Below, piece after piece: positions 5,382-62,562 of a stretch of 64,000 nucleotides of DNA. Position 1 is the stretch's first letter. Each line of letters starts with the position of its first letter. The position numbers and the translations under genes were made by a program. The DNA comes from Candidatus Daviesbacteria bacterium (GTDB lineage Bacteria > Patescibacteriota > Microgenomatia > Daviesbacterales > UBA10151). The notes beneath the pieces are model-generated. The model was not told the origin of the DNA. It did not search any database and saw only the letters and a list, made by a program, of their open reading frames with translations. The stretch covers positions 6,800-70,799 of the forward strand of contig JACPDA010000004.1 of NCBI GenBank assembly GCA_016184225.1, in the 5' to 3' direction.

Positions 5382-6581
5382 CTAAGAAATAACCTTAAGC
5401 TCTCTTCCAACTTTAGCAAAAGCTGCAATGCCAAGATCCAAATCTTTTTTATCATGGGCTGCAGAGGGTATCACACGAACTCTATCTTTTCCCTTGGGAA
5501 CCATGGGGAAAACAATCGGTGTGGCAAAAACATCCAATTCAAAAAGCTTGGCGCTAAACTGCCTGGCTAAATTCTCATCAGGTAGCATCACCGGAGTAAT
5601 TGGTGTCTGGGAGTGGCCGGTATCAAATCCTAACTTTTTAAACTCTTCCCGTAGGTAATTAGTATTATCCCACAGCTTCTTAACCAGCTCATCTGATTCT
5701 TCCAGAATTTTAACTCCTTCCAAAACTGCGGCTGTATCCGCAATTGTTAAAGCATTTGAAAATAAAAATTGCCTGGCTTTTTGCTTGTAAAAATTAATCA
5801 AGGTGGCTTTCCCGGTGATAAAGCCACCCATCACAGAAAAAGCTTTGGACAGTGTCCCCATTTCAATATCCACCTGCCCATGAAGATTAAAATGATCAAC
5901 AATACCCCGGCCGCCTTTACCCAATACCCCTTCCCCATGTGCATCATCAACCATAGTTAAAACCCCATACTTTTTAGCCAGTTCCACAATTTGCGGCAGC
6001 GGCGCTAAATCTCCATCCATAGAAAAAACACCATCTGTCACAATTAAAATTACAGGCTCCTCTCCATTCTCTTTTGGGGTCTTTTGCAACTCCACCGCCT
6101 CTTTAAGCCGCTCTTCCAGCTCACCCATATCCAAATGTTTGTAGATAAACTTATTTTTAACCTGGGACAGCCGGATCGCATCAATAATAGAAGCATGGTT
6201 TAGCTCATCGGAGATCACAATATCTTCTTTGCCAATAATGGTAGCAATGGCCGCGCAATTGGCCATGTAGCCGCCGGTTAAGACAATAGCCGCCTCAGCT
6301 CCCTTAAACCGGGCTAGAGCTTCTTCCAGTTGAACATGCAAGGTATGAGTACCTGCCAGAGTCCGGTAACCTGTGCCGATACCGTATTTATCCACTGCCT
6401 CTTTGACAGCTTCTTTTAGTCTATCATCTACAGCCAACCCTAAATAATGGCTGGAGCAAAAATTCAGTTTTTTCTTCCCATTAATGGTAAGGTACGCCCC
6501 TTCCCCTGATTCAATCACATAAGGAATTTTGCCACTTTTCACTGCTTCTGCAAGATTGCGATAGAAGTCCGTAGTATTCAT
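5382..6581 (-). CDS. kbl: 2-amino-3-ketobutyrate CoA ligase (glycine C-acetyltransferase), PLP-dependent family
   Basis: The fold-type I aminotransferase class II signature (AONS/Kbl family) is present. It sits in an operon with a threonine dehydrogenase. Confidence 0.85.
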
Positions 6582-9451: not shown

Positions 9452-10027
9452 CTAATTATACTGATTTTGGGCTTTTTCTAAACCCTTTTCCAAAAGCAAA
9501 TTAAGCGCTTTGATTGCTTGTTTCATTATATGCTTAACCTGATGCTTTTCTGATTGCACAAAAGGCTCCAACACAAACTTTTCCACCACTCCTGTGGCCG
9601 GGCCAATTCCCAATCTCACTCTTATAAATTGGTCTGTCCCTAAGGCTGCAATAATAGATTCCACTCCATGATGCCCGGCTGCTGCCCCACCCATCCTGAT
9701 TTTAATTTTACCTAAAGGAAGGTCTAAATCGTCATGGACCACAATAAGGTCAGTAGTTGGTAGCTTGTAGTAAGTAGTCAGGAGTTTAATAGCCATACCA
9801 GAATTATTCATATAAGTTTGGGGTTTAGCCAGAATAAGTGACAAGTGATTAGTGCTAAGTGATAAGTCAAGGCGCAGAATTTCAGATTTAAACTTTTCTT
9901 TGTACTCCCACTTTGCACTTTGCACTTTGCACTTTGCACTTAACTCCTCCACCACCATAAAGCCTAAATTATGCCTGACACCAGCATATTTTTCTCCCGG
10001 GTTTCCCAGTCCCACTATTAGTTTCAC
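9452..10027 (-). CDS. pth: peptidyl-tRNA hydrolase carrying an in-frame repeat-derived insertion (KCKVQSAKW...)
   Basis: MKLIVGLGNPG...RHN start and an HDDLDL motif. The extra segment, relative to canonical Pth, is encoded by the TTTGCAC/TAAGTGC tandem repeats at 9844-9940. Confidence 0.9.
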   Translation of the reverse strand: MKLIVGLGNPGEKYAGVRHNLGFMVVEELSAKCKVQSAKWEYKEKFKSEILRLDLSLSTNHLSLILAKPQTYMNNSGMAIKLLTTYYKLPTTDLIVVHDDLDLPLGKIKIRMGGAAAGHHGVESIIAALGTDQFIRVRLGIGPATGVVEKFVLEPFVQSEKHQVKHIMKQAIKALNLLLEKGLEKAQNQYN

Positions 10028-13870: not shown

Positions 13871-15619
13871 CTATTTCTTAAATTGAAGCTTATACATCTC
13901 AACCAACTCTTTAACAGTTGTAGCGTCTTCAGCGTGTTTATCAGAACCACGGAACTTGACCAACCTGGGAAATCTGAGGGCGTAACCGGGCTCTGAGCCC
14001 TTTTTTCCGGCAGTATGAACCGGGCTTCTTGTGATCTCATCTGCCAACACCTCAATCACTATCTTTGGTTCCACCCAAACACTCGGTGTAATGAGCGAGC
14101 TCACTCTGGCTGGTTTACTTTGCACTTTGAACTTTGCACTTTTCACTTTTATCTCCCTCCATTCTTCATCAGTTAAACCGGTGCCGATTTTAGAAACCGT
14201 CACGAATTCGTCTTTTCCCTTATCGTAAACACCCACCAACAAAGAACCAGCTCCGAACCCTGCCCGTTTCCCCCGGCCGAAGATATAGCCTAAAATTACG
14301 CAATCAATTGTGTCTTTGAGCTCTCCTGCCGAGTGTCTTTTTAGCTTGACCCAATTGAAATTTCTGGCTCCTGCCTCATATTTTGAATCAGGCCTTTTAC
14401 AAACAAGCCCTTCCAATCCCTTGGTAATTGCATCATCAAATAATTCAATAATCCGTTTTACTGACTTGGTAAACTCCCCGGGCTGCGCAAGTAAAACCGT
14501 ATCAGGGGTGATGACTTTTTTCAATTTTTCCATCCGGGCTCGGAGGGATAAGTCAATTAAGGATTTCCCATTTAAATACATAATGTCAAACACAAAAGCT
14601 TTTAAAGGTAAGCTTTTTGCCATCTCCTCAATGTTATATTTACGCCGTCTTTTAGTGGTTTCCTGGAAAGGCAAAAATTCCTCTGACTCCGGGTTAAAAG
14701 CTACTGCTTCCGAGTCCAAAATAATGCTGTCTGCTTTAACTTGTTTCAAAATCCCCTGGATAATCTCGGGAAACATGGGTGTAGTTTCCTCTAAATTCCG
14801 GGAAAACAGCCTGACTTTTTGACCTTGTTTGTGTATTTCAATCCTGAAACCATCATATTTATACTGAACATGTGCTTCGCCGCCAAATTTTTCTAAAATG
14901 GTATTGGCATCAGGCAAACGTTCTGCCAGCTGCGACCTGATGGGTCGACCCACTGTCACATCCAAGCTCCGCACTCCCTGAATTCCCTGACTCCATAATG
15001 TTTCCGCAATCACTCCTAAATCAGAAGTTTTATTGTAAGCTTCTTCCAGCTCTTTGCGCCTTTTCCGGTCCCCCAGCTTAGCCAGGGCAAAGCCGTCTAA
15101 CACCGTCGGATCCCCTATTCCCAACCTGGAAACACCCAGAGGAATCCTGACCAGATGTTTTGCCGAAACCGGATCCATCTGCTTTAGCAGACCGGAAAGA
15201 AGTTCCAATTTTTTCTCAACTGTCCCCTTCCCGGCAGTCCCGGCAATCTCTGTCAAAGTCTTAAATACATCTGTAATTGTCATTCTGGCTTGTCCAGAAT
15301 CGATTCTGGATGCGCTTTGCTTACCAGAATGACGTTGTGCCACAACCCCTAAGTCTCCTACCTGTCCATATTCTCTCAACACCTCTTCCCGCTCTACTCC
15401 ATAAGCTCTGGCAATAGATTGAGCCACCAACTTCTCGCTCATACCGATCTCAATCGGTTCATAAAAAGGCGCCACCCGGCCCTGGATTAAATAAACCACT
15501 TTGGCAATTTCCGCAGGTTTAACTTTGGAAAAAAGCTCTGCCAAAATATCAATTAAAGAGAGTCTGGAAGAAGTCTGTTCCAATTTTTCAAAATACTCTG
15601 TAAGTTTAGAAAATTTCAT
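13871..15619 (-). CDS. lig: ATP-dependent DNA ligase (LigI/LigB family)
   Basis: KYDGFRIEIHK (KxDG adenylation motif) and the downstream ligase motifs. The true start is probably MKFSKLTEYF near 15619. The 71-codon 5' extension in the ORF track runs through a MITE-like repeat and is likely not translated. Confidence 0.85.
   Translation of the reverse strand: MKFSKLTEYFEKLEQTSSRLSLIDILAELFSKVKPAEIAKVVYLIQGRVAPFYEPIEIGMSEKLVAQSIARAYGVEREEVLREYGQVGDLGVVAQRHSGKQSASRIDSGQARMTITDVFKTLTEIAGTAGKGTVEKKLELLSGLLKQMDPVSAKHLVRIPLGVSRLGIGDPTVLDGFALAKLGDRKRRKELEEAYNKTSDLGVIAETLWSQGIQGVRSLDVTVGRPIRSQLAERLPDANTILEKFGGEAHVQYKYDGFRIEIHKQGQKVRLFSRNLEETTPMFPEIIQGILKQVKADSIILDSEAVAFNPESEEFLPFQETTKRRRKYNIEEMAKSLPLKAFVFDIMYLNGKSLIDLSLRARMEKLKKVITPDTVLLAQPGEFTKSVKRIIELFDDAITKGLEGLVCKRPDSKYEAGARNFNWVKLKRHSAGELKDTIDCVILGYIFGRGKRAGFGAGSLLVGVYDKGKDEFVTVSKIGTGLTDEEWREIKVKSAKFKVQSKPARVSSLITPSVWVEPKIVIEVLADEITRSPVHTAGKKGSEPGYALRFPRLVKFRGSDKHAEDATTVKELVEMYKLQFKK
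15278..15333. repeat. MITE-like hairpin element (ends TGTCATTCTGG...CCAGAATGAC), in frame inside the ligase gene
   Basis: Terminal inverted repeats with an internal gattctgga block. It encodes RHSGKQSASRIDSGQARMT within the ligase. Confidence 0.75.
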
Positions 15620-17761: not shown

Positions 17762-17817
17762 CTATACCCTATACCCTATACCCTATACCCTATACCCTAT
17801 ACCCTATACCCTATCTT
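17762..17817. repeat. tandem heptamer array (CCTATAC) x8
   Basis: Perfect 8-copy array in the spacer between fic and the PaaX-like gene. Confidence 0.9.
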
Positions 17818-19364: not shown

Positions 19365-22300
19365 TTATTGGGAAACATATTCATCCCAACTCTTGATTTT
19401 TAAATCCTCCATTTTCTTATTAGTTAATGCTGAAATTAAAAGTTCTGCTGCCTGTAAATTAGTTATCAGGGGTATTCCTAAATCAACACAAGTCCTCCTG
19501 ATAATAAACCCATCGGTTTCACCTTTTTTCGAACGGGGTTTGGAAATGTTTATCACTAAATCAATACCGTCTTGTTTTAACAGGTCCAAAACTGACGGGT
19601 GCTTTCTTTCCGAAATTTTAGAGACTCTGGTACTTTGAATATCATTCTTACTTAAAAACTCATGGGTCTGCGGTGTCGCATATATCTTAAAACCTAAGTA
19701 GAATAAATCCCTTGCAGACGAGAGCAAATCCAGTTTATTTTCTTCTCCGCCAATAGTTAATAAAACTGATTTTTGGGGCATCTTAAAACCGGTGGCCAGT
19801 ATGGCTTTAAGATAAGCTTCCTGCAGGTCATCACCAAAACAGGCCACCTCCCCAGTTGAAGACATCTCCACCCGAAGCCTTGGATCAGCTCCCTTAATCC
19901 GGCTAAAGGAAAACTGAGGAGCTTTTACCCCGACATAATCTAAGTCTAAGGTATTAAAGTCTCCCGATATCTTCTCCCCCAGCATCACCTGAGTTGACAT
20001 TTCCACAAAGTTATAGCCGGTTACTTTAGAAACAAACGGGAAAGAGCGGGAAGCGCGCAGGTTTAATTCAATCACCAAAACCTGATTATCTTTGGCTAAA
20101 AACTGGATATTAAAAGGACCGTTTATATTCAATGCCTGGAGAATCTTTCTGGTAGCATCCTTAACTTTTCTCACAGTTTCCAAATACAACCGCTGCGGCG
20201 GCAAAACTATGGTGGCATCCCCGGAGTGCACCCCGGCATTTTCCACATGCTCGGAGATGGCGTAAATTAGAAGCTGGCCATCCTGTCCCACCCCATCCAC
20301 CTCAATCTCTTTGGCTCCTTCCACAAATTTAGAGACAACCACCGGATGCTCTGCCGATATATCGGCTGCGCTTTTTAGCGCTCTTTTCAAATCAGTGCCG
20401 GAATATGCCACGTTCATGGCAGAACCTGATAAAACATACGAGGGCCTGATCAAAACTGGATAGCCTATTTTTCTGGCAAACTTAAGTGCCTCATCAGCAG
20501 TTTTCAAGCTCTGCCAATCCGGCTGCAGAATTCCCAGTTGATCCAGCAGTTTAGAAAACTTATCCCTATCCTCTGCCCGGTCAATGCTTTCCGGGGAAGT
20601 CCCCAGTATTTTATAACCGGCCCGGAAACAGTCCATTGCCAAATTATTGGGAACTTGCCCGCCAAAACCTAAGACAAGTGCTGAGTGCTTAGTGTTTAGT
20701 GTTGAGTTTTTCCAACTTTGCACTTTGAACTTTGCACTTTGCACTTCTATTTCATAGATATCACTCACCCGCTCAAAGGTCAGTTGCTCAAAGTACAACT
20801 TATCTGCCGAGTCGAAGTCAGTAGAAACAGTTTCCGGATTACAATTTATGATAATTGTTTCCAAGCCCCTACTTCTAAGTGTTTGCGCAGCTGTCACCGA
20901 GCACCAGTCAAACTCCACTGAGGAACCAATCCGATAAGGCCCGGAACCCAAGACGATTGCCTTTTGCTTCTTTTTGTCATCCTGGCTTGTCCAGGATCCT
21001 TGCTTTTTTGATTCTGGACGCACTTCGTTTGCCAGAATGACATTCTCTTTCTCCGTTTCATCTCCATGATATGTCAAATATAAATAATTCGTCTTGGCCG
21101 GATATTCTGCTGCCAGGGTATCAATATGTTTGACCTTCGGCACTATGCCATTCTTTTTCCTAAACTCCCTTACTTCTTCCTCCGTTTTTTTAAGCCCTTT
21201 AGCCAATATCTTATCTGAAAACCCCAACTTCTTAGCTTCTCTAACAATTTCTGACTGCAACCTGTTGCCTGTAACCTGTAACCTACCTTCAAACTTCACT
21301 ATTTCCTGAATCTGATACAAAAACCAAGGATCAATGCCGGTTGCCTTATAGACAGCCTCTACAGATTCGCCCTTGCCGAATCTTTTGGCAATCACAAATA
21401 GCCGCTCTGTTGTAGGTAAAAGTTTCGTGTCGTCAATACTGTTTTGCAGTAACCCATCTTGACCTGTTTCCAGCATCCTGATGGCTTTTTGCAGCACTTC
21501 CGGAAAACTTCGTCCGACAGCCATCACCTCTCCCACGCTTTTCATCTCCGAACCAATCGCCTCTTTTGCCCCCACAAATTTTTGCAAATCCCAGCGCGGG
21601 ATCTTAACCACTATATAGTCTAACGCCGGCTCAAAAAATGCCGAAGTTGACAGAGTCACGCTATTTTTTAACTCCGGCAGGTTATAACCTAAGGCAAGTT
21701 TGGCGGCAATGTAGGCCAAGGGGTACCCGGTAGCTTTTGAGGCCAAAGCAGAAGACCGGGACAACCTGGCATTTACTTCAATCACCCGGTAGTCATTATT
21801 TTTAGGATTTAAGGCAAACTGGATATTACATTCACCGACAATCCCTAAATGTTCAATCACCGCAAGAGAGATTCTGCGTAAAAAATGATACTGGTAATTA
21901 TTAAGAGTTTGGGAAGGAGCCACTACAATACTCTCTCCGGTATGGATGCCTAAAGGATCCATATTTTCCATATTACAAACAGTAATTTTGTTGCCTAAAT
22001 TGTCCCGGACTACTTCATACTCAACCTCTTTCCAGTGCTTTAAATACTCTTCTACAGCTATCTGGGGGGCCTGCTTCAAAGCTAAAGTCACCATCTGGAT
22101 AAGCTCTTTTTCATTTTCTATAACTCCGGACCCCAATCCTCCCAAGGAAAAACCGCTTCTTATGAGTAAAGGGTATCCTAACGTTTCTGCAATTTTTAGG
22201 GCCTGATCTAGTGAGCGGGCAAACCCGCCTTTGGGAACCTTAACACCTATCTTGGCCAGCTCCTTAGCAAACAGTTCCCTGTCTTCTGTAATCCGAATAC

Positions 22301-22726: not shown

Positions 22727-23845
22727 TTATATTAAATCCAAAAATTCATCAAATAAATAACCGCCCTCTGTCGGACCCGGGTTGGCTTCCGGGTGAAATT
22801 GTACTGCTATAAAAGACTTTTTATTGTGCCTAATCCCCTCATTTGTGCCGTCATTTAAATTAACAAACCACTCTAGCCACTCTTTTCCTAAAGATTTCAT
22901 ATCCACCGCGAAACCATGATTTTGACTGGTTATGATAGCTTTCTTGTTATTTTGATCTAGTACAGGCTGATTTTGGCTTCTATGACCGAACTTTAGTTTG
23001 TAAGTTTCTCCTCCAGCTGCCAAAGATAAAATCTGGCTGCCTAAACAAATACCAAAAGTGGGGACACCTGCATCAAGCAACTGCTTAACAGTTTCTATAG
23101 TGGCTTTAGCCTGTTTTGGATCTCCCGGGCCGTTGGAAATTAGAACTCCGTCAAATCCGCCAGCTGGCGGACTAGCTATCGGATTAAAATCCCAGGGCAC
23201 CCTGGTTACCCTGACTCCTCTTTTAACTAAACTCCTGATAATATTTTCCTTGGCTCCGCAATCAATTAAGACTATATTTTTCTTGTTCATCCTGAGCGAA
23301 GTCGAAGGACCATACACCTCCACCTTTTTACAACTAACATAAGGCAAGATATTCTCTTTATTCGGATCATAAATAGAGTCGCTAGTCGCTAGAGTCGAGA
23401 GTCTAGACTGTTGATTCCTAGACTCTAGATTCTTGACTCTAGACTCTACTTCTATTCGACCAAGCATCACTCCATGCTTCCGAAGCTTAGTAGTCAACTC
23501 CCTGGTATCAATCCCCTGCAAAGCAGGTATCCCTTCATCTTTCAGCCACTCCCCCAAAGTTTTCTGGCTTTCAAAATGTGACGGGTGGTCAATATAGTTT
23601 TGCACAATTAACCCCTTAACCTGAATTTTTTTTGATTCCCAAAACTTTTTTCCCGGCACCCCGTAATTTCCCTGCAAGGGATAAGTCAAAACTAGGATTT
23701 GGCCAAAATAAGATGGGTCTGTCAAGGATTCCGGGTATCCCACCATACCGGTATTAAAAACCACCTCGCCTGAGGTAGCTACCTCTTTCCCAAAGCTTTC
23801 TCCTAAAAAAACTGTCCCATCGGACAGAATCAGTCTCCCTTGCAT
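22727..23845 (-). CDS. carA: carbamoyl-phosphate synthase small subunit (glutamine amidotransferase)
   Basis: Class I GATase triad region (GICLGSQ...HPE). It contains an in-frame PPAGG palindrome and the SRLSTLATS repeat module. Confidence 0.9.
   Translation of the reverse strand: MQGRLILSDGTVFLGESFGKEVATSGEVVFNTGMVGYPESLTDPSYFGQILVLTYPLQGNYGVPGKKFWESKKIQVKGLIVQNYIDHPSHFESQKTLGEWLKDEGIPALQGIDTRELTTKLRKHGVMLGRIEVESRVKNLESRNQQSRLSTLATSDSIYDPNKENILPYVSCKKVEVYGPSTSLRMNKKNIVLIDCGAKENIIRSLVKRGVRVTRVPWDFNPIASPPAGGFDGVLISNGPGDPKQAKATIETVKQLLDAGVPTFGICLGSQILSLAAGGETYKLKFGHRSQNQPVLDQNNKKAIITSQNHGFAVDMKSLGKEWLEWFVNLNDGTNEGIRHNKKSFIAVQFHPEANPGPTEGGYLFDEFLDLI
23381..23460. repeat. 80-bp repeat module (gtcgctagtcgctagagtcgagagtctagac...) shared with the fpg gene at 29805-29885
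   Basis: Near-identical blocks encode ...SRLSTLATS... in frame in both CarA and Fpg. Confidence 0.8.
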
Positions 23846-23860: not shown

Positions 23861-24799
23861 TTATCGAGAATTAATTCTTCCTAAGACTAAAGCCAACAAC
23901 GCTTCTCTAATATATAAACCATTCCTGGCTTGAGCAAAATAAATGGCATTTTTATGACTATCTAGCGCCGGATCAATCTCATTTACTCTAGGCAAAGGAT
24001 GCATCAATTTTATTCCCCGATCCAGGTACTTCTTAAAAGAAGAGTCTAAAATAAATTTATCTTTAATCCTTTCGTATTCCTTTAAATCTTTAAATCTCTC
24101 TTTCTGCACTCTGGTTTGGTAAAGAAAGTTTGCCTCTAAGTTTTCCGGCAAACGTTCATATTCTTCATAAGTCACTTTCCTGCTTTTTAAAATCTTTAAA
24201 AATTCATCAGGCATCGCAAGATTAGGGTGTGAAATAAAAATCTGTTTAACTCTAAAAAGGCTTAAAGCAAGAGAAAGCGCATGAACGGTTCTGCCATATT
24301 TTAAATCCCCCATCAAGGCTACTGTAATCCCATCTAACTTCCCGGCCTCCTTCATCATCGTATAAAGATCAAGCATTGTTTGAGTTGGATGCTGATTAGG
24401 CCCGTCTCCTGCGTTTATAACCGGAATTTGGGCAACTTCTGCTGCCTTTTTTGCTGATAAAGCCTCCGGGTGCCTCATAATTAAAACATCAGCATATGAG
24501 TCCATAATTCTGATAGTATCTGAAAAAGTTTCACCTTTGTGAATGGAGGTGGCCTCCGGATCATTAAAACCAATTATCCCCATGCCTATTTTTTGGGCTG
24601 CAGAACGGAAGGATTGTTCTGTCCGAGTAGAAGGTTCAAAAAAAAGCAAAGCAACAATTTTACCTTGGGCAATAGTGTAATTTGACCTGTCGCTTTTAAC
24701 AAAAGCCGGATCAAATCTTTTAGCAGTTTTTAAGATATATAGCAGCTCTTCTTTGGAAAAATCATTTATGTCTATAATATCTCTGCCTTTAAATTTCAT
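23861..24799 (-). CDS. pyrB: aspartate carbamoyltransferase catalytic subunit
   Basis: STRTR and HPTQ motifs. Confidence 0.9.
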   Translation of the reverse strand: MKFKGRDIIDINDFSKEELLYILKTAKRFDPAFVKSDRSNYTIAQGKIVALLFFEPSTRTEQSFRSAAQKIGMGIIGFNDPEATSIHKGETFSDTIRIMDSYADVLIMRHPEALSAKKAAEVAQIPVINAGDGPNQHPTQTMLDLYTMMKEAGKLDGITVALMGDLKYGRTVHALSLALSLFRVKQIFISHPNLAMPDEFLKILKSRKVTYEEYERLPENLEANFLYQTRVQKERFKDLKEYERIKDKFILDSSFKKYLDRGIKLMHPLPRVNEIDPALDSHKNAIYFAQARNGLYIREALLALVLGRINSR

Positions 24800-24800
24800 A

Positions 24801-24824
24801 TGTCATTCTGGCTTGTCCAGAATC
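24801..24824. repeat. MITE-like half element (TGTCATTCTGGCTTGTCCAGAATC) immediately upstream of pyrB
   Basis: Same terminal motif as the other family members; here it is a short palindromic core only. Confidence 0.7.
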
Positions 24825-24955: not shown

Positions 24956-25216
24956 CTACTTTGCAAGTCTTGTCCTCTTGAATTCTAAATATTCAACAAT
25001 CCGCGGATCATCTATCGGTATTGGACTATTTTTTTGACCAAGTGCCACACATAGACCTCCAAGATATGTTCCAATTCCTTCTGGCGGTATTCCCAGCTGC
25101 GCAACCAAACTTTCTACTAAAGGATATCCCTGGCCTGCGTCTCTCTCAGTCTGACCCATTTCTATTTTTTCTACCATAATATTTTCTCCATTTAAAAAAC
25201 CCTTGTAAATCTCCAA
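24956..25216 (-). CDS. hypothetical small protein between pyrC and pyrB
   Basis: The ORF sits in an operon-like position; I recognise no motif. Confidence 0.35.
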   Translation of the reverse strand: MEIYKGFLNGENIMVEKIEMGQTERDAGQGYPLVESLVAQLGIPPEGIGTYLGGLCVALGQKNSPIPIDDPRIVEYLEFKRTRLAK

Positions 25217-25486
25217 TCATTAGATCAGAAACTTACAAGGGCCTTTTATGGCGGTGCCACCTTGCTTAAATTTTTTTACAAAAATTTATCTCTTTCAGCG
25301 CTCCGTTCCGCCAGCTGGCGGACGACACGCTTATTGTATTTGCACAGTTCAATTTCTGTCATACTCTATCCTTCGACTTCGCTCAGGACTGATGTATGCT
25401 GCTTGTCCGCTGCGGCGGACTTATCGTTGCTTACGCAAACAAACGCATTATGAATACAGTATACCATAAAAACTTAAGTTGTCAAA

Positions 25487-26545
25487 TCACCCTTTCAGAA
25501 TTTGTCCATATGGACCAAAAATGTTTTGGCCATCATAAACCATCTTCCCTCTTAAAACCACTTTTTTAACTCTCCCTGTTACCTTCATTCCAACAAAGGG
25601 GGTCCAACCACATTTGGTAAACAAGTTGTTAGGGTTTAGGGTGTAGGGTATAGTTTCTACTTCTACAAAAGTTTCTGGTTGTTGGAGAATACCAAAAATT
25701 CTTTTGGGATTGGTGCTTGTCAACTCGATCAATCTCTCCAGAGTCAATCGCCCATCATTTACAGCTGTCAGTAGCAGTGGTAGCGTAGTTTCCAACCCCG
25801 GCACACCGTATGGCGGCTTTTCCCCTTCTTTTTCTGCTCTGGTGTGCGGAGCATGATCAGAGGCAATCATATCAATGGTCCCCTCAACCACGGCTTGCCA
25901 TAGGGCATCTTGATCTTCTTTGCTGGAAAGAGGTGGCTTCATCAGTCCATATGCACCCAACCTTTTTGCGTCTTCATTAGTTAAAAACAGATGGTGACAG
26001 GTTACCTCACTGCTTATTTGCAGGCCATTCCTTTTGGCAGCTTTAATTAGTTCAATCTCTTTTCGCAAAGAAACATGACAGACATGCAACTGATTACCAA
26101 ATTTTTTGGCCAAGAAAATGGCTTTTTGCAACGTATCACCTTCTGCATGAACTAAAACAGGCAGGTTTTTTGGCCAGGTGGAAAAAACAGCCTCCAAAGT
26201 TTGATCATCCTCCATCAATAAATCCCCGGTGGTCTGATTCATATAAACTTTCAACCCAAACACCTTACCGGAAATTTCATTGAAATACTGAATGCTTTTA
26301 CTGCTGGCCCCAAAATGAAACCCCACATCAGCATAAATTCTTCCCCTGGCCAGATCTATTTTTTCCTGCAAAGCCTGCGGTGAAATAGTGGGAATAGGAT
26401 TATTCGGCATATCCAAAACTAAAGTATACCCACCGGCAATGGCAGCTTTGGTGCCTGTTTCAAAGTCCTCTTTTTGGGTGGCACCCGGTTCCCGAAGGTG
26501 CACATGAGGATCAATTAACCCGGGGAGTTTAATCTTATTTTGCAT
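25487..26545 (-). CDS. pyrC: dihydroorotase-like cyclic amidohydrolase
   Basis: GLIDPHVHLREPG metal-binding motif and the pyrimidine gene neighbourhood. Confidence 0.8.
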   Translation of the reverse strand: MQNKIKLPGLIDPHVHLREPGATQKEDFETGTKAAIAGGYTLVLDMPNNPIPTISPQALQEKIDLARGRIYADVGFHFGASSKSIQYFNEISGKVFGLKVYMNQTTGDLLMEDDQTLEAVFSTWPKNLPVLVHAEGDTLQKAIFLAKKFGNQLHVCHVSLRKEIELIKAAKRNGLQISSEVTCHHLFLTNEDAKRLGAYGLMKPPLSSKEDQDALWQAVVEGTIDMIASDHAPHTRAEKEGEKPPYGVPGLETTLPLLLTAVNDGRLTLERLIELTSTNPKRIFGILQQPETFVEVETIPYTLNPNNLFTKCGWTPFVGMKVTGRVKKVVLRGKMVYDGQNIFGPYGQILKG

Positions 26546-27903: not shown

Positions 27904-29313
27904 CTACTTCCCTTCCCAATGCCCCAACCCTAAAAACTCCCTCACCCGATAAGATAATTCATGTTTTCTAAAAAATAAACTAGGATTAAGCCCAAAGAGC
28001 CCCACCATAATTACCAAAAACCCTAGTCCGATAAAAATAGGGGTGGTGCCGAAAATATCAGCCAAAATACCTACCAGAAAAATCGGGATTAAAGAGAGCG
28101 CAGACATGGCCACCCCTAAGACAGAAAAAACTTTCCCCCGGTTGCTTTCCGGGGTATTTTGCTGCAGTACTGTTTGTGAAGGAATCAGGATGGAAACTAT
28201 AGCCATTCCTATTAAAAACGACCCCACTACCAAAACTTTAGAAAGCGGCAACTGGTAAAAAAAGGGCACGGGCCGCGGATGCTTAAAATAATTAACAGCA
28301 GGAGACACAAGCGGGGCAATCCCTACCAAAAAAAGCAATAACCCCACAAAAAGAATAGCTCTGGAAACTAATTTCCTCTTGACTAAACTGCTCCCAAATT
28401 TGCCCAGGATCATTCCTCCAGTGATAATCCCCAACCCCAAGGGGATAATCAACACATAAGTTGCATCCGTTGCTTTAATTTGCAATGACCTTTCCAAGAA
28501 ACCAGGGGCTAAAACTGCCATAATGCCTATGCCCATCTGGACTCCTGCCAGGATCAGGATAGAAGATAGCACCGGCAATTTTCCCTTAATAATCCTCATT
28601 GTTTCTGAAATTTCAAACATGCCGATCTCTTTGATCTCGGAATATTTTCTTTTGGCCAGAGCCCAGATAAGCCTTTTACCTTGTGCATCCGGCGTAGATT
28701 GAATGGAAGGAAACAAAAGTGACAATATAAATGCCCCGGCCAAAATTACTCCACCCAATCCAAATACCACATTAATGCCTAAATGGGTAATCAAAGGCCC
28801 GGCCAAACCAAACCCCACCAAAAAGGCCGAGTACAATGTAGCCGAGAAGAGCGAGTTGGCAGTCAACAGTTGATTCTTTTTCACCACCAAAGGGATGGCA
28901 GAGGCTTCAGCCGGGGAATAAAATTGACCTAAAGCATTAATTAAAAAAGTTATCGCTAAAATTGCCGGAAAGCTTCCCTTAAAAAAAATCAGGCTGAAAA
29001 AGAGGATACTTAAGAAAAAATCAATCACCATAATGATCTTTTTCCGGTCAGTAATGTCAACCAGTACACCAGAAAATAACCCTAAAATTACTGCCGGCAG
29101 GTAAATTGAAAAAAGCAGGGCCGACACAGCAGTGTTGGAATCAGTCAGTTTAAAAACCCAAATAATCAGGGCAAAGTTTAGGGCATTAAAAGATAATTGA
29201 ACTAAAATTTGGTTAACCCACAGGTTTAGAAAACCCTTGTTTTTTAACACCCCGGAAAAGGAGACTTTTTCAGCCATAGGGTAGATTATACGGCTTTCTG
29301 GCAATGAGGGCAA
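27904..29313 (-). CDS. MFS transporter
   Basis: Twelve or more predicted TM helices and MFS-like loops. Confidence 0.7.
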   Translation of the reverse strand: MPSLPESRIIYPMAEKVSFSGVLKNKGFLNLWVNQILVQLSFNALNFALIIWVFKLTDSNTAVSALLFSIYLPAVILGLFSGVLVDITDRKKIIMVIDFFLSILFFSLIFFKGSFPAILAITFLINALGQFYSPAEASAIPLVVKKNQLLTANSLFSATLYSAFLVGFGLAGPLITHLGINVVFGLGGVILAGAFILSLLFPSIQSTPDAQGKRLIWALAKRKYSEIKEIGMFEISETMRIIKGKLPVLSSILILAGVQMGIGIMAVLAPGFLERSLQIKATDATYVLIIPLGLGIITGGMILGKFGSSLVKRKLVSRAILFVGLLLFLVGIAPLVSPAVNYFKHPRPVPFFYQLPLSKVLVVGSFLIGMAIVSILIPSQTVLQQNTPESNRGKVFSVLGVAMSALSLIPIFLVGILADIFGTTPIFIGLGFLVIMVGLFGLNPSLFFRKHELSYRVREFLGLGHWEGK

Positions 29314-30293
29314 AGGTAGGTGCCGCGGCCGCCGAGTGAGATTTTTTTAATCTCTGTCCCGCAAACTTTACAAGGGTGTTTATCGCGCCAGTAGACAAAG
29401 GCATAATCTAAAAAATAACCTTTGTGTCCTTCCGCATCTACAAAATGTGCCCTGGTTGAACCTCCGTGCTTTATTCCTTCCCTTAAAGCCCTGACTACCC
29501 CACGGTGTAGAGCTTGGAATTTCCTATCAGTCAATGTAACCACTTTAGTCCGAGGATCTATTCCAGCCATAAAACAGGCCTCATTAGAGTAGATATTTCC
29601 CACTCCTGATACCACGCTTTGGTCCATAATAGCCACCTTAACTGGCATTTTCTTATGTTTCAATAAATTCTGCTTAAGAACCTGCCATGTAAACCCTTTT
29701 TCTAAGGGCTCCGGTCCAAGATTCTTGATTGAACTGTCCACTGTAACCTGTTGCCTGTCCACTACCTTCACCCATCCAAACTTCCTCTGGTCATTAAAAT
29801 ATAAGTGGCTAGTCGCTAGAGTCGAGAGTCTAGACTTTTCATATTTTTTTCCTAGACTCTTACCACTTGACTCTAGACTCTGAAGTGTAAATATCACCCT
29901 GGTATGAGAGTTTGGCATCTTACCTAACATATCCTCAGTCGGATGTCCGCCAATAAATTTATTGTCACCTGTCGCCTGTTGCCTACCGCCTTCCCATATC
30001 AGTTGGCCTGACATCTTCATATGAAAAAGAAGAGTTATCAGGTTAGAGGTTACAGGTTTCAGTTTTGAAACTTTTTTAACTGTCCCCTGTCCACTGTACC
30101 CTGTACCCTCTGCGAGGTCTATACCGAGCAGCTTCGCTCTTCTCCAAACTTTGAGTACTTTTTGTCCCTGGGCCAAATTAGGGTTTCCAATAAAAGATTT
30201 AGGAGATAAAATCTGGATCTTTTGGATCTTCAGTCCAATAATTTTATTTTGTAGACCCAGTCTAATGACCTCAACTTCGGGAAGTTCTGGCAT
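29286..30293 (-). CDS. mutM: formamidopyrimidine-DNA glycosylase (Fpg/MutM) with repeat-derived in-frame insertions
   Basis: N-terminal MPELPEVE and a C-terminal zinc finger C..C...CPHCQ. The protein is about 335 aa versus about 270 canonical; the extra segments are encoded by GTTACAG repeats and the SRLSTLATS module. Confidence 0.85.
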   Translation of the reverse strand: MPELPEVEVIRLGLQNKIIGLKIQKIQILSPKSFIGNPNLAQGQKVLKVWRRAKLLGIDLAEGTGYSGQGTVKKVSKLKPVTSNLITLLFHMKMSGQLIWEGGRQQATGDNKFIGGHPTEDMLGKMPNSHTRVIFTLQSLESSGKSLGKKYEKSRLSTLATSHLYFNDQRKFGWVKVVDRQQVTVDSSIKNLGPEPLEKGFTWQVLKQNLLKHKKMPVKVAIMDQSVVSGVGNIYSNEACFMAGIDPRTKVVTLTDRKFQALHRGVVRALREGIKHGGSTRAHFVDAEGHKGYFLDYAFVYWRDKHPCKVCGTEIKKISLGGRGTYLCPHCQKAV

Positions 30294-31718: not shown

Positions 31719-32424
31719 TCTGAGTCAACTCAAGCGGGGTACCGGAAGCCACAATTTTTCCGTGGTTTAAGAAAATCACATTATTGGCAATCTCTTCTAT
31801 TTCCCACATGTTGTGGGAAGTATAAAGAATGGTAATTTTTTCCTCTTTTTGGATTTGTTTGAGCAAATTAATCCCTTTATCCACCACATCAGGATCCATG
31901 GAAACCATCGGCTCATCTAAAAGCAGTAGTCTTGGTTTATTAAGCAAGGCCTTACACAGGTTAGCCCTAGCCCGTAGCCCTGTTGATAAATCCCGGGTAG
32001 CAGTGTTGCGGAAATCAATCATTTCAAAAAGCTGGAGCAGTTCCGTGATTCTTTTTTTGGCCTCCGGCACTTCATAAAGCTTGGCATAAACCAATAAGTT
32101 CTCCCAAATAGTTAAATTCCAAGGCAAATTAAAATCAGCCGAAGCATAATTTACTTCTTTAAAAATTTCACTCCTGTCTTTGGAAATATCCTTGCCAAAA
32201 ATACGGATATTACCCTCATCCGGAACAATCAAACCTAAAATGCAATAAATAGTGGTAGATTTGCCTGCCCCATTTGGTCCTAAAAATCCCAAAATCTCCC
32301 CTTCTTTCAAAGAAAAAGAAATATTATCAATAGCAGTAAATCCGCCGGCTGGCGGACCAAAGTTTTTCCTTAAATTTTTCACTTCCAAAATCACCCTTTT
32401 ATCCATAATTTTCCCTTCTGTCAT
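31639..32424 (-). CDS. ABC transporter ATP-binding protein
   Basis: Walker A GPNGAGKST, ABC signature and Walker B LLLLDEP. It contains an in-frame PPAGG. Confidence 0.88.
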   Translation of the reverse strand: MTEGKIMDKRVILEVKNLRKNFGPPAGGFTAIDNISFSLKEGEILGFLGPNGAGKSTTIYCILGLIVPDEGNIRIFGKDISKDRSEIFKEVNYASADFNLPWNLTIWENLLVYAKLYEVPEAKKRITELLQLFEMIDFRNTATRDLSTGLRARANLCKALLNKPRLLLLDEPMVSMDPDVVDKGINLLKQIQKEEKITILYTSHNMWEIEEIANNVIFLNHGKIVASGTPLELTQSVLKLEGDEPNLRDVFIHLSRSKYES

Positions 32425-33674: not shown

Positions 33675-34730
33675 TTAACGGTGTAACCGTTTTTCTATCT
33701 TGGCACCTCTTTTAGATACTGTCAAGGTTGTCACTTCATGTCCGCCGTCTTTTTCTACTACTCCGGATAAATCAAACCATTTATTATCACCGGTTATGGC
33801 AGAAATGGAGACCGAGCAATCCTCCTTTTTACCGGAAACCAACTCATCTATTTTCCAAGCCTTTTTGTATTTTTGGGCAATTTCCGTATCAGGCGACCAA
33901 CCCCTACCTTCCCCTACCGCCCCCAAAGCTTTGGCTGCCACTGCCGCGAGTACCCCCTCTTCAAATCCTCCAATCCCCATCACCAGATGTATTCCTTTTG
34001 TCATTCTGGCACCGACTCTGTCGAGTGTCCTCGATTCCATCGGGACTTGTCCAGAATCTTTTTTAGGATCCATACAAGATAAGATAGACGGCAGAAAGTC
34101 TCCGGCGGGAATCTTAATGAGATTAACCCCGAATTTTTGGCAGGCATTAATCAAATGGCTATTCCTGTCCCGATCCATCATCACCACATTAATCTCAGCA
34201 GGTTTGACTCTAAATATATCCACCACTTCTGCTAAATTTTCCTCTACTCTCTTATCAATGGAAATCTTACCTAGTAGCTCGGGTGGGCCAAATAATTTAT
34301 CCATATAATCTATATCCGGCGGAGTTGGCATCAAGCCTTTGTGGGAACCTACTGCGATCACAGAAACAGCCCCGGGAGAATTTAACTTGGCAGCTTTACT
34401 GCCTTCCACCACATCGTTAACCATGTCCAATTTCAAGTCACTTCCGCCAGCTGGCGAACCAAAAGTTCCCTCCAAAGTTGGCAGCGCTTCCCCGTATTGA
34501 TGGATATGTTTTCTGCCCTCAGAGCCAACTACTTCCAAAACAAACGGGATATCGGTTAAAGCAGCATACATAGCATCCACCCCGGCCTGGTCAATCAATT
34601 TCTCCCGGGCCTTGGATTCTTCTTCTGTCAAAAGATCTTGCGGGCTAAAGCCTTTTTCCTGAATTAGCCTCCAAACTGATAAAGCAGTTAGCTCGGTGGC
34701 ACGAATAATATAATCTCTAACTTTAGGCAT
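33675..34730 (-). CDS. glpX: fructose-1,6-bisphosphatase class II (GlpX-like)
   Basis: Alignable by eye to GlpX (VIAVGSHKG, IPAGDF..ILSCM, MGIGGFEEGVLAAVAAKALGA). It contains an in-frame PPAGG-type palindrome and a MITE-like insertion. Confidence 0.75.
   Translation of the reverse strand: MPKVRDYIIRATELTALSVWRLIQEKGFSPQDLLTEEESKAREKLIDQAGVDAMYAALTDIPFVLEVVGSEGRKHIHQYGEALPTLEGTFGSPAGGSDLKLDMVNDVVEGSKAAKLNSPGAVSVIAVGSHKGLMPTPPDIDYMDKLFGPPELLGKISIDKRVEENLAEVVDIFRVKPAEINVVMMDRDRNSHLINACQKFGVNLIKIPAGDFLPSILSCMDPKKDSGQVPMESRTLDRVGARMTKGIHLVMGIGGFEEGVLAAVAAKALGAVGEGRGWSPDTEIAQKYKKAWKIDELVSGKKEDCSVSISAITGDNKWFDLSGVVEKDGGHEVTTLTVSKRGAKIEKRLHR
33999..34058. repeat. MITE-like element, in frame in glpX
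   Basis: TGTCATTCTGGCACCGACTCTGTCGAGTGTCC...GGACTTGTCCAGAATC encodes ...DPKKDSGQVPMESRTLDRVGARMT... Confidence 0.7.
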
Positions 34731-39675: not shown

Positions 39676-41889
39676 TCAAGGATTTAATAGTTTCATTTCT
39701 CCCCAGTTCTTACCAACTTTGAGGTCAACTATGACAGGCACTGAAAGTTTGAGAGCATTTTCCATTTTTTCTTTCACCATTTTCCCCACTTCGCGAACGC
39801 TTCGCGGGGTGCATTCAAACAAAAGCTCATCATGAACCTGGAGAATAAGTGAACAGTGCTGAGTGCTAAGTGCTAAGTCCTTTTTCCCACTTTGCACTTT
39901 TCCCTTTGCACTTAACACTTTCCCAATCTCCACCATGGCCTTTTTAATCATATCAGCCGCCGTGCCTTGGACCGGATGGTTGACTGCAGCTCGCTCCCCG
40001 GCTGCCCTGATCATCCGATTCCCCACTTTTAACTCCGGAATATACCTTTTCCTGCCCCAAATGGTCTCCACAAAACCGTTCTCATAGCCAAATGCCAAAG
40101 TATCTTCCGTCCATTTCCTGACTTTGGGAAATTCGGCAAAATACTCATCAATATACTGGCGGGCCAACTCATATGGCACTTCCAGTTGGCGGGAGAGCGC
40201 ATGCGGCCCCTGGCCATAAAGGGTGGCAAAATTCATGGTTTTACCCACCATCCGCTGCTCTCTTGTCACCTTTTCCAAAGAGACATTAAAGATTTTTGAA
40301 GCAGTTAAGGCATGAATATCTACTCCTTCCTTAAAAGCTTTTTTCAAACCCGGGTCATCTGCCAAATGGGCCATAATCCGCAGTTCAATCTGTGAGTAAT
40401 CAGCTGTTAGCAACACCTTACCTTTGGGGGCCACAAATGCTTTCCGAATTTCTCCTCCGGCCTCGCCTTTAATGGGAATATTTTGTAAATTAGGGTCTTT
40501 GGAAGAAAGCCTGCCGGTAGCAGCCCCTTCTACATTAAAAGTGGAATGGATCCTACCGGTGCTATCTACAAATTTAGGCAGGGCATCAATATAGGTGGAA
40601 ACCAGCTTAAATAATTGCCGGTATTCCAGCATCAGTGGCACTGCCGGATGGGTTAGCGCTAACTCACGCAGGGTGGCTTCATCAGTGGAACGGCCGGTTT
40701 TGGTTTTTCTCACCACCGGCAGCTTTAGCTCATCAAACAGCACTTCTGACAACTGCTTTGGGCTGTTCAGATTGAACTGATGTCCTACTTTTGAGTAAAT
40801 CTCCTTTTCAATCTTGGCTAATCTGGCTTTTAGCTGTTTGCCAAACCTGCTTAAAAACTTCAGGTCAATTAATACCCCGGCCTCTGACATTCTTTTAAGA
40901 ACAGGCTCTACCTGATGATCCAAATCTGCTGTTTGCTGGTTTTGTGTCATTCTGGCTTGTCCAGAATCCTCTTCTTTAGATTCTGGAGTCCTCACTGCGT
41001 TCGTCCCCAGAATGACATTTTGGGAACCGGAAACCCTGGCTATCAAACTTTTGAATTCGAGTTCTTCAAACAACTTAACCACTTTTTCTTTATCAAAATC
41101 GTGCACTATACATTCTTTCAAATTAAGCTTAATTGGTGCTTTTAAATCCAAAGTAGCCAGTCTTTTGCTCATCACGGCAGATTCTGCCCCCTCGGAAAGC
41201 AGTGTTTGCATCCTCTCCGGCAAGGTTTTCAGATTTTCAGATTTGTAAATATTTTCAACTGAACCAAACTGGTGAATCAATTTAGTGGCTGTGACATCAC
41301 CAATTCCCGGCACCCCGGGAATATTATCCGAGGCATCCCCGGAGAGCCCTTTATAATCAGTTAATTGTTTTGGGAAAAAGCCATATTTGGCCACAAACTC
41401 CTCCAGTCCATATAATCCTACATCTGCCAGGGTTTTTTTGGGCATAAACACCTTAACTTTCTTATCAATCAGCTGCATGATATCCCGATCCCCGGTCACA
41501 ATAATAGTTTCCAAATCCGTTTCTTTCTCTGTTTGCTTTGCCAAGGTTCCGATTAAATCATCTGCCTCATAACCTGCCAGCTTAAACTCCGGAATATTAA
41601 AAGCTTTAGTTATCTCATGCACCCTTTTGTATTGACCGGATAAACCCTCATCAGTGGCAGTCCGGGTGGCTTTATACTGGGTATAAGCTTGATGCCGGAA
41701 AGTCGGACCCTTTTCATCCCAGGCAATAGCCAAATACCGCGGGTGCAGCTCCGAAATCACCCTTAAAACCATGGAGGAAAAGCCGTATACGGCATTGACC
41801 AACTCACCCGAGGAGGTAGTAAAAGGCGGTGTGGCATGATAGGCTCGGTGCAACAGGGCATTCCCATCCACTAATACTAAACGTTTCAT
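39676..41889 (-). CDS. polA: DNA polymerase I (5'-3' exonuclease plus polymerase domains; short, 737 aa)
   Basis: 5' nuclease motifs at the N-terminus and polymerase motifs A, B and C at the C-terminus. A MITE-like element and a heptamer-repeat block are inserted in frame in the inter-domain region. Confidence 0.9.
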   Translation of the reverse strand: MKRLVLVDGNALLHRAYHATPPFTTSSGELVNAVYGFSSMVLRVISELHPRYLAIAWDEKGPTFRHQAYTQYKATRTATDEGLSGQYKRVHEITKAFNIPEFKLAGYEADDLIGTLAKQTEKETDLETIIVTGDRDIMQLIDKKVKVFMPKKTLADVGLYGLEEFVAKYGFFPKQLTDYKGLSGDASDNIPGVPGIGDVTATKLIHQFGSVENIYKSENLKTLPERMQTLLSEGAESAVMSKRLATLDLKAPIKLNLKECIVHDFDKEKVVKLFEELEFKSLIARVSGSQNVILGTNAVRTPESKEEDSGQARMTQNQQTADLDHQVEPVLKRMSEAGVLIDLKFLSRFGKQLKARLAKIEKEIYSKVGHQFNLNSPKQLSEVLFDELKLPVVRKTKTGRSTDEATLRELALTHPAVPLMLEYRQLFKLVSTYIDALPKFVDSTGRIHSTFNVEGAATGRLSSKDPNLQNIPIKGEAGGEIRKAFVAPKGKVLLTADYSQIELRIMAHLADDPGLKKAFKEGVDIHALTASKIFNVSLEKVTREQRMVGKTMNFATLYGQGPHALSRQLEVPYELARQYIDEYFAEFPKVRKWTEDTLAFGYENGFVETIWGRKRYIPELKVGNRMIRAAGERAAVNHPVQGTAADMIKKAMVEIGKVLSAKGKVQSGKKDLALSTQHCSLILQVHDELLFECTPRSVREVGKMVKEKMENALKLSVPVIVDLKVGKNWGEMKLLNP
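40945..41017. repeat. MITE-like element, in frame in the polA linker
   Basis: TGTCATTCTGGCTTGTCCAGAATC...CCCCAGAATGACA encodes ...TPESKEEDSGQARMTQNQQ... Confidence 0.75.
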
Positions 41890-51479: not shown

Positions 51480-51516
51480 ATTTTTTATAACCCTGAGCGT
51501 AGTCGAAGGGCTCCAC

Positions 51517-53213: not shown

Positions 53214-53295
53214 ATACAGTTATTGTATGCATCTTGTATCGAATTGTCAATACTTCAGCTTTGTTCAGTATTGACCCTGAGCGTAGTCGAACGGG

Positions 53296-57067: not shown

Positions 57068-57070
57068 AAT

Positions 57071-57859
57071 ATGAATTTATGGAAAAATTTAGACAAAATA
57101 ACTGCCCAATTAAAAAACAGCCCTGCAAAAGTTTTAATGCTGGATTTTGATGGCACTTTAACTCCGATTGTTAAATCTCCAAAAGAAGCTAAGCTGTCTT
57201 ATGAAATGAAAAATTTATTAATAAAGCTTAGTAAAAAAGAGGGGCTTTATTTGGCAATTATCAGTGGTAGAAAACTGGCAGACTTAAAAAAGAAGGTTAA
57301 CCTGCAAAACATAATTTATGGCGGCAGTCACGGGCTAGAAGGAGAAATCTTTGGTCAAAAGCAATCCTTCCCCATCCCGAATAAAACATTAGTAATTTTA
57401 AGAAATATCCGGGAACAACTTAATAAACTAGCCGGACAAATAACAGGAGTATTTATTGAGGATAAAGGGTCGGTTTTAAGTTTTCATTACAGATTGGTAG
57501 ATAAACAACAAATACCAGAACTCAGATTGTTATTTAAGGAAATATTGCAGCCTTATGTTGAGGATGGATCCATCTCTTCAGTTGCAGGTAAGATGGTGTT
57601 TACCATCCACCCTAAAGTCAATTGGAATAAAGGTAGCTTTGCGAAGATGGTAGTTGAGAAAATACCCACAAATTCAAAAACAGTACCGACTGCTGTTTTT
57701 ATCGGCGACGACACAACCGATGAAGATGTTTTCCAAGTACTTAAAAAAAGTATTACTATAAAAGTGGGCGCAAGTAACCAATCAAGCGCCAAGTATCGTT
57801 TGAAAGACACGAAAGACGTTTTTAGTTTTCTTGAGTGGATGAATACAACTTTGGTATAG
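57071..57859 (+). CDS. otsB: trehalose-6-phosphate phosphatase (HAD family)
   Basis: HAD motif I LMLDFDGTLTP and motif III GDDTTDED. Confidence 0.85.
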   Translation: MNLWKNLDKITAQLKNSPAKVLMLDFDGTLTPIVKSPKEAKLSYEMKNLLIKLSKKEGLYLAIISGRKLADLKKKVNLQNIIYGGSHGLEGEIFGQKQSFPIPNKTLVILRNIREQLNKLAGQITGVFIEDKGSVLSFHYRLVDKQQIPELRLLFKEILQPYVEDGSISSVAGKMVFTIHPKVNWNKGSFAKMVVEKIPTNSKTVPTAVFIGDDTTDEDVFQVLKKSITIKVGASNQSSAKYRLKDTKDVFSFLEWMNTTLV

Positions 57860-57871
57860 TATTCCTAAGTT

Positions 57872-59068: not shown

Positions 59069-59094
59069 CAAACGGTTTACTCTTAAGCTAAGTT

Positions 59095-60471: not shown

Positions 60472-60476
60472 CTTAA

Positions 60477-61577: not shown

Positions 61578-61604
61578 GGCATATTATAGCATAGAATATG
61601 TTGT

Positions 61605-61847: not shown

Positions 61848-61874
61848 TAAATAGAACGTGTTAAAATAACAGCC

Positions 61875-62556: not shown

Positions 62557-62562
62557 ACCCCC

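Follow-up and report, generated by a model that had tools for sequence, protein, structure and literature searches.

The 64,000-nucleotide stretch of a Candidatus Daviesbacteria genome analysed here (contig JACPDA010000004.1, positions 6,800 to 70,799; hereafter the window) carries, inside its carA and fpg genes, two copies of a short palindromic element composed of tandem 7-nt units, and the same element was found in at least 11 host genes across Daviesbacteria genomes. It constitutes a dispersed family with a constant architecture and a fixed rule of frame and orientation within genes, while orthologous sites may be filled, empty, reduced to remnants or occupied by other repeats. The reading favoured here, to which we assign a probability of roughly 0.6, is that this is a selfish or neutral, hairpin-forming repeat of Daviesbacteria that resides inside genes and is expressed as a segment of their proteins, its peptide being a tolerated passenger, in the manner of the Rickettsia palindromic elements (RPEs). 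An initial annotation had noticed an 80-bp module common to carA and fpg; the present analysis goes beyond it in resolving the module into 7-nt tandem subunits that form an imperfect hairpin, in assigning it to a dispersed family with sister families, and in locating its conservation at the nucleotide and not at the peptide level.

The two copies in carA and fpg

Both copies are located in minus-strand open reading frames (ORFs), within a few bases of where the initial annotation had placed them. The first (23375..23449, minus strand; 25 codons, V133-S157) lies in carA (22727..23845, minus strand; 372 aa), whose product was identified by the Pfam domains CPSase_sm_chain and GATase and by a match to a solved structure. 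The second (29805..29882, minus strand; 26 codons, Q138-H163) lies in fpg/mutM (29286..30293, minus strand; 335 aa), identified by the Pfam domains Fapy_DNA_glyco, H2TH and zf-FPG and likewise by a solved-structure match. As had been claimed, the module is in frame in these two unrelated enzymes: the peptides are read in the same frame (..VESRVKNLESRNQQSRLSTLATSDS.. and ..QSLESSGKSLGKKYEKSRLSTLATSH..) and each contains SRLSTLATS. The carA copy adds 22 codons compared with empty orthologous sites, and the fpg copy adds 21 compared with the empty site of the closest orthologues (..FSFSDGSHLYF..). Module-less orthologues exist for both proteins, and the Fpg of the window has 335 aa versus 276-290 aa in its shortest orthologues. 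An intein or a group I/II intron would have to be longer than the 75-78 nt of the element.

On the plus strand the copies have in common an identical 29-mer, GCTAGTCGCTAGAGTCGAGAGTCTAGACT (23381-23409 and 29808-29836), a 10-mer, CCTAGACTCT (23417-23426 and 29851-29860), and a 16-mer, CTTGACTCTAGACTCT (23432-23447 and 29866-29881). Between these blocks they are unlike in both sequence and length, which is why an ungapped repeat finder (family D10) reported only 77% identity over 71 nt; alignment with MAFFT gave 80% column identity. The 21-mer GCTAGAGTCGAGAGTCTAGAC, with up to 3 mismatches allowed, has exactly 2 matches in the window versus 0.00 expected from 100 dinucleotide-preserving shuffles. 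The similarity is therefore one of alignable sequence and not of low-complexity composition, the possibility that had been left open in the initial annotation. An assembly artefact was also considered and rejected, since the element recurs in independent NCBI, ENA, JGI and Logan assemblies.

Each copy, in the coding sense, consists of three parts: a 5' heptamer arm, a variable loop and a 3' arm that is a degenerate complement of the first. The 5' arm is composed of 3-4 tandem 7-nt units, GAGTCAA or GAGTCTA. In copy 1 it occupies 23417..23449 (minus strand; GTA GAG TCT AGA GTC AAG AAT CTA GAG TCT AGG = VESRVKNLESR) and is followed by the loop at 23408..23416 (minus strand; AAT CAA CAG = NQQ), which is the hypervariable part of the family, and by the complement arm at 23375..23407 (minus strand; TCT AGA CTC TCG ACT CTA GCG ACT AGC GAC TCT = SRLSTLATSDS). 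The 3' arm of the window copies can be written as TCTAGACTCTCGACTCTAGCGACTAGC(G/C)AC, a degenerate reverse complement of the 5' arm. The palindromic subunits described in the initial annotation were recovered by two programs: Tandem Repeats Finder (TRF) reported a period-7 array (CTAGACT x 8.4 at 23389-23448; the period-7 census of the window lists it at 23418-23448), and the repeat finder reported inverted arms (AGAGTCGAGAGTCTAG / CTTGACTCTAGACTCT) in both copies. The loop measures 9-15 nt in the two window copies and 10-17 nt across the family (alignment A5, 22 copies), where it displays no conservation beyond T-richness of the plus strand; its peptide in carA orthologues is NQQ, SNTK, NEKENT or NEK. 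The 3' arm is nearly invariant in the same alignment, most copies of which had been found with a 20-mer from that very arm.

The two arms differ in their coding capacity. All three frames of (GAGTCAA)n are free of stop codons, while its exact reverse complement would meet a TGA in each frame inside a span of three units. The complement arm as it stands has one open frame only, the one reading SRLSTLATS, and this single open frame accounts for the fixed frame of the element and, in part, for the invariance of the 3' arm. Stop avoidance as the reason for every departure from complementarity was rejected, as it covers the outer complement arm only; the TCG position is not explained by it, since P0018 has TTG there.

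Both copies are predicted to fold into imperfect hairpins. The carA copy reaches -32.0 kcal/mol (z -3.8) when the coding strand is folded and -36.0 kcal/mol (z -4.25) when the opposite strand is; the hairpin of fpg is weaker (-21.9 kcal/mol, z -2.1, and -24.9 kcal/mol, z -1.9, respectively). Over 22 copies, 87.9% of stem cells were paired versus 19-46% when the partner was slid by 1-3 columns. Wobble pairs (G-T) fall on the antisense strand of the host genes, which is the strand that pairs better, and a structure in the mRNA is therefore not favoured. No match to the module was found in Rfam at a permissive threshold, and the module was not flagged in the terminator/promoter scan.

A family of in-gene copies across Daviesbacteria

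Searches with the complement-arm 20-mer GTCGCTAGAGTCGAGAGTCT revealed 16 loci in about 13 species-representative genomes and 4 further metagenome contigs, with 0 matches among viral contigs. A profile of the copies (nhmmer) recovered 24 full copies in the 237 kb searched, including diverged ones lacking the 20-mer, and the three-part architecture was present in all of them. The genomes matched by the 20-mer are those of Daviesbacteria together with metagenome-assembled genomes titled 'Gammaproteobacteria'. The latter (L002, L003, L005-L007, L009, L010, L012 and L013, from binchicken assemblies) are recorded as 'uncultured Gammaproteobacteria bacterium' and carry the element in genes closely resembling those of Daviesbacteria; the uvrA of L012, for example, resembles the Daviesbacteria uvrA of L008. 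These record titles are probably wrong.

The look at other genes that the initial annotation had suggested thus extended the module well beyond carA and fpg. Hosts confirmed by Pfam are PolA (two copies), ThyA, DnaX, UvrA (two), GyrA (three), LeuRS, RecG, TsaD, CarA and Fpg; one further copy constitutes the C-terminus of a 418-residue reading frame in L014. About three quarters of the copies lie inside ORFs. Those in long ORFs are all on the strand opposite to the 20-mer pattern, in one common frame and without stop codons, and of the six frames only one (sometimes two) is stop-free per copy. The four copies outside genes are all in intergenic spacers, and three of them (L003:4497-4567, L026:1177-1250 and L011:3738-3812) have, relative to the neighbouring genes, an orientation reverse to that of the genic copies; two of these three supply or overlap the stop codon of the upstream gene. 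Both orientations therefore exist and gene interiors keep the translatable one, which fits survivorship under translation and argues against removal of the segment.

Proteins acting on DNA or on DNA precursors account for seven of the 11 host families (PolA, DnaX, GyrA, UvrA, RecG, Fpg and ThyA), a bias that may be an effect of gene length or of ascertainment. Searches at the protein level were uninformative: a profile of the doubled 25-aa peptide matched, in the databases searched, only short ORFs of cyanobacterial heptamer arrays, and a representative search with the two window peptides returned two unrelated repetitive proteins. Such short, low-complexity queries are unusable against these protein databases.

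Within host proteins the element occupies loops and linkers. The CarA segment (aa 133-157) is located between the Pfam domains CPSase_sm_chain (ending at aa 131) and GATase (starting at aa 192), and has no counterpart in the aligned human CPS1 (5dot); in an AlphaFold2 model of CarA of moderate quality (mean pLDDT, the per-residue confidence score, of 69) aa 136-157 are predicted as coil with pLDDT <50. In Fpg the segment is in the N-terminal domain, the alignment with MutM resuming at S162. In the PolA of L001 and L006 the element stands in place of a short loop of Taq Pol I preceding the QVHDEL strand, and in ThyA it falls within a region of the small domain that varies between lineages.

Comparison with orthologues revealed filled, empty, decayed and replaced sites. 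Among 30 CarA orthologues of Daviesbacteria, 11 have the family at the same site, two are empty and the others carry different inserts. The empty ones (P0091 and P0098) read ..GKIGEGGIYDPN.. (KIGEGGI and KIGDVESI), the empty site of carA being 21-24 nt long. The same site is occupied in P0006 by a different hairpin, (AATGGAC)x5 + loop + (AATTGTC)x4, in P0009 by a pure tandem array, (AGTTCAA)x5, that forms no hairpin, in P0011 by another tandem array without a complement arm, (AGATCAA)x4, and in P0008 by an AGTTCAA array interrupted by a nested GC-rich palindrome. Members of the family are dispersed over almost every clade of the carA tree, which suggests its old presence with repeated decay or replacement. 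Fpg orthologues present another picture, as 25 of 29, including the closest, are empty (FSFSDGSHLYF). The element is present with the same right boundary in a distant orthologue (P0159), survives as a remnant with the centre deleted in P0134, and is represented by a related element at a different site in P0237. Between fpg of the window and its closest orthologue (L029) identity is 78% overall but mosaic: as estimated from the alignment, the genes are near-identical at the start (~260 nt, with two heptamer inserts) and at the end (~180 nt), and divergence is concentrated mid-gene, in the region of the element. This mosaic suggests recombination between Daviesbacteria lineages.

The level at which the element is conserved was assessed with orthologous copies. 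A first comparison of their identity was biased, as the copies had been found with a 20-mer from the left arm, and it was replaced by comparisons in which carA copies were found by protein similarity or in which the heptamer arm, not used in the search, was evaluated. Third codon positions of conserved carA residues are 72-100% identical in the arms versus 53-61% in the rest of the gene; for the pair L022 and L024 the counts are 15/17 in the arms and 139/250 elsewhere (Fisher p=0.006). For the heptamer arm, pooled polA, uvrA and gyrA pairs gave 30/39 versus 1160/2143 (p=0.003), the gyrA pairs not being independent of one another. At the residue level the arms, with 64-82% identity, do not surpass the rest of CarA (77-86%). 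Since third positions of the arms are conserved above the background and residues are not, the constraint or homogenisation acts on nucleotides and not on the peptide.

Sister heptamer families and other repeats of the window

The element is one of several heptamer repeats in the window. A stringent census counted 13 arrays of period 7; shuffled sequences had 0, and each of the other periods between 4 and 12 had 0-2. Twelve of the 13 are inside ORFs, and 9 of the 55 ORFs host at least one; the sole array outside ORFs is a perfect (CTATACC) x 7.6 in an intergenic region at 17762-17814 (TRF, census).

The same three-part build recurs in a second family, (AAGTGCA)n + loop + (CACTTAG)n, which the repeat finder and TRF located in three genes. 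In carB it reads ..VQSAKFKVQSWKNSTLNTKHSALV.. (20664..20759, minus strand); in the peptidyl-tRNA hydrolase gene it has a longer loop (9831..9954, minus strand); and in polA it reads VLSAKGKVQSGKKDLALSTQHCS (39842..39926, minus strand; repeat families D2 and D9). The last of these, with -32.4 kcal/mol (z -3.5, and z -5.9 on the other strand), is situated exactly where the PolA of L001 and L006 carries the SRLSTLATS element. The replaced sites of carA and polA mean that in two genes one codon position is shared by different families. A periodic mismatch between the arms of the sister family was also read by eye; on that reading of the unit a perfect complement would be stop-free, and stop avoidance would not explain the mismatch.

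Apart from the element itself, the Fpg of the window contains the heptamer-derived segments DRQQVTVDSS (29734-29771), GGRQQATGDNK (29963-29984), KLKPVTSNL (30034-30068) and EGTGYSGQGTV (30079-30111), and these four constitute most of its additional ~50 residues. CarA has two further inserts. A GC-rich palindrome, TCCGCCAGCTGGCGGA, is present four times in the window (D12; 23150-23172, 25301-25323, 32335-32357 and 34437-34459) and is read in frame as PPAGG in CarA (SPPAGG, 23150-23172) and in an ABC ATPase; RecF also has NPPAGGPLG. It seems to represent in-frame palindromic inserts of another class. The repeat CCTGAGCGAAGTCGAAGG (D15; 23289-23312, 51490-51513 and 53274-53297) gives GPSTSLRMN in CarA, and an insert of this type (PSTSLRVN) is present in just 2 of the 29 other CarA orthologues. 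Another palindromic repeat, GTCATYCTGGCTTGTCCAGRATC (D5; 15261-15301, 20958-20998, 24784-24824 and 40928-40968), reads ..GSWTSQDDKK.. in carB, and its other copies lie near gene starts.

Other features of the window are larger in scale or unconnected with heptamers. Two direct repeats of 262 nt (D1; 1423-1684 and 5383-5644) are 91% identical and 3960 nt apart, the second overlapping the 3' end of an aminotransferase ORF (5382-6581). GC skew is strongly negative to about 56 kb (1-56000) and near zero thereafter (56000-64000), and almost every ORF is minus-strand up to about 54.7 kb and plus-strand beyond; a replication origin or terminus may therefore be located near 54-56 kb. Downstream of pyrC there is a strong terminator-like hairpin (25198-25243; 20 pairs followed by a T run), adjoined by a sub-threshold T-box-like match (25234-25507; 23 bits versus a gathering score of 93), which is probably due to chance.

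Likeness to described repeats, origin and significance

The closest parallel to the element is offered by the RPEs. According to a review, RPE-1 to RPE-10 insert in frame in many unrelated genes (PMC10969869, reviewing Ogata et al. 2000). Like the RPEs, the Daviesbacteria element is a dispersed palindromic family that can form a stem-loop, is found in frame in unrelated housekeeping genes of a small genome with a predicted peptide compatible with the fold, and has copies also between genes; for neither is a transposase or an obvious target duplication known. It differs in its length (about 75-85 bp versus about 100-150 bp), in its construction from 7-nt tandem units and a degenerate complement arm, in its host, which belongs to the Patescibacteria/candidate phyla radiation rather than to the Rickettsiales, and in that several families of the same architecture replace each other at one codon position. 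We would therefore regard it as an analogue of the RPEs and not as a member of them, set apart by host, heptamer build and length, with no sequence relation to be expected.

Among the closest described systems are also the heptamer repeats of Beggiatoa and of cyanobacteria. The heptanucleotide repeats (cyanobacterial short tandemly repeated repetitive sequences, STRR, and the 'long simple sequence repeats' of Mrazek 2007), as cited in PMC4679880 and PMC4692102, have the same unit of 7 nt, about 3-8 units per array and several unit families per genome. These repeats are reported to be mainly intergenic and under-represented in coding regions (PMC4692102/PMC4679880), whereas 12 of 13 arrays here are genic, and the Daviesbacteria array is joined to an inverted complement arm with a conserved 30-mer. 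GAGTCAA arrays themselves were encountered in the heterocystous cyanobacterium Gloeotrichia echinulata (P0122, P0125 and P0127), as (SQESRVK)n in short predicted ORFs. Repetitive extragenic palindromic (REP) sequences and REPINs, mobilised by REP-associated tyrosine transposases (RAYTs; PMC3116915), resemble the element as short imperfect hairpins of inverted arms with tens of dispersed copies and arms conserved at the nucleotide level; REPINs are, however, extragenic by definition, whereas the present element is mostly intragenic and putatively translated, with heptamer arrays as arms in place of the 16-20-nt REP. [quoted passage not shown] The full-text literature searched yielded no account of elements of this kind from Daviesbacteria, Microgenomates or Patescibacteria, but its coverage is incomplete, so that an earlier description is possible; the element is apparently undescribed in this phylum.

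If the element is indeed an RPE-like passenger, new copies would appear at numerous sites and in either orientation, perhaps through a transposase specific for single-strand hairpins acting in trans, as has been proposed for the movement of REPINs (PMC3116915), or through template switching or gene conversion between heptamer arrays. Within genes, survival would be limited to the stop-free orientation and frame at permissive surface loops or interdomain linkers. After insertion the heptamer arm would change by slippage and the loop would drift freely, and the element could decay by internal deletion or give way to another heptamer family. The arms would be held alike at the nucleotide level by the requirement for pairing, by homogenisation between copies or by both, and the peptide would be a disordered, hydrophilic loop, carried as a passenger and not as a selected product.

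Several observations weigh against this reading. No transposase, RAYT or mobilising gene was found among the 20 window ORFs scanned against Pfam, and no target-site duplication was recognised by eye at filled versus empty carA and fpg sites, whose boundaries are blurred by codon divergence. The copy number is low (2 in 64 kb), and near-identical genomes displayed no polymorphism between filled and empty sites that would have revealed recent mobility. Eleven of 30 orthologues have the carA copy at one and the same position, over nearly all clades of the carA tree, a scatter that looks like old vertical inheritance. Covariation is not significant: the arms vary so little that compensatory changes in the 22 copies do not exceed those in shuffles. 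The conserved synonymous sites are equally compatible with a function of the hairpin, and translation is deduced from open frames only.

Two alternatives assign a greater role to the structure. It is possible, if rather unlikely, that a structure-directed system installs heptamer hairpins at set positions within essential genes, keeps them uniform and exchanges them, either as transposase-independent mobile DNA that targets hairpin sites or by way of cis-acting structures of single-stranded DNA or RNA (in replication, repair or co-translational pausing). If true, this would explain both the different families of the same architecture at one codon and the synonymous conservation of the arms across species. 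Rather unlikely, too, is a functional hairpin in the strict sense, i.e. a cis-acting DNA or RNA structure under selection (a pause site at domain boundaries, a binding site for an RNase or another protein, or a single-stranded structure in replication or repair) with the peptide as its by-product. Such selection would account for arms whose synonymous sites are conserved above the background of the gene while their amino-acid identity is not, for arms conserved next to a free loop, for pairing in 88% of stem cells, and for a carA copy kept exactly between two domains and across the tree in a reduced, deletion-prone genome, as well as for different families of the same architecture at one site. 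It sits poorly with the many orthologues that lack the element, having a hairpin-less array (P0009 and P0011) or nothing (P0091 and P0098) at the site, and with remnants, which show that decay is possible. Compensatory changes do not exceed chance, the module has no Rfam family and is not terminator-like, and its better-pairing strand is antisense to the host gene, against a structure in the mRNA.

A purely local origin, in which heptamers slipped on the spot and the likeness between genes reflects convergence on stop-free hydrophilic units, is improbable. It would be in keeping with the strong enrichment of period-7 arrays in the window (13 versus 0 in shuffles), with the pure arrays lacking a complement arm at the carA site of P0009 and P0011, and with the varying number and variants of units in the heptamer arm; heptamers are also reported as the commonest long simple repeats in bacteria and are ascribed to slippage (PMC4679880 and PMC4692102). 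Yet a non-repetitive complement arm of ~30 nt, including an irregularity of 2 nt, recurs unchanged across unrelated genes and across species, and independent slippage cannot account for it; nor can an inverted arm arise by slippage.

Still less probable is a functional peptide module, in which ESRVKSQES..SRLSTLATS is selected as an interaction or localisation tag, chiefly on enzymes of DNA metabolism. The near-invariance of RLSTLAT in the peptide alignment and the 7 of 11 hosts acting on DNA or precursors are what it would predict, but the host bias may come from gene length and from the way in which the copies were found, and synonymous sites of the arms are conserved although their residues show no higher identity than the remainder of the protein, the opposite of what selection on a peptide produces. 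In addition, the segment is predicted as low-confidence coil, orthologues lack it or have unrelated peptides at the site, and copies are found also between genes. Although the element is a hairpin within coding sequence and candidate-phyla-radiation bacteria are known for insertions in their rRNA genes, it is hardly credible that the segment escapes translation, by removal from the RNA as a mini-intron or by ribosome bypass as at the yeast mitochondrial 'byp' hairpins and T4 gene 60, for every genic copy is stop-free, frame-preserving and in the only open frame, the outer part of the complement arm deviates from a perfect complement in just the way that keeps TGA out, and wrong-orientation copies are excluded from gene interiors, constraints that would be needless if the segment were skipped and that therefore contradict excision or bypass.

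Genomes of the candidate phyla radiation are regarded as extremely streamlined, yet those of Daviesbacteria carry these inserts inside genes. The element bears on the acquisition of loops by proteins, and the coexistence of filled, empty and replaced sites amounts to a natural experiment in how well insertions are tolerated. It also matters for annotation and alignment, since such inserts split Pfam domains in two, inflate the length of proteins and can mimic homology between unrelated ones, while the conserved 30-mer provides a practical marker of the lineage. Finally, the element touches on the unexplained excess of heptamer repeats in bacteria.

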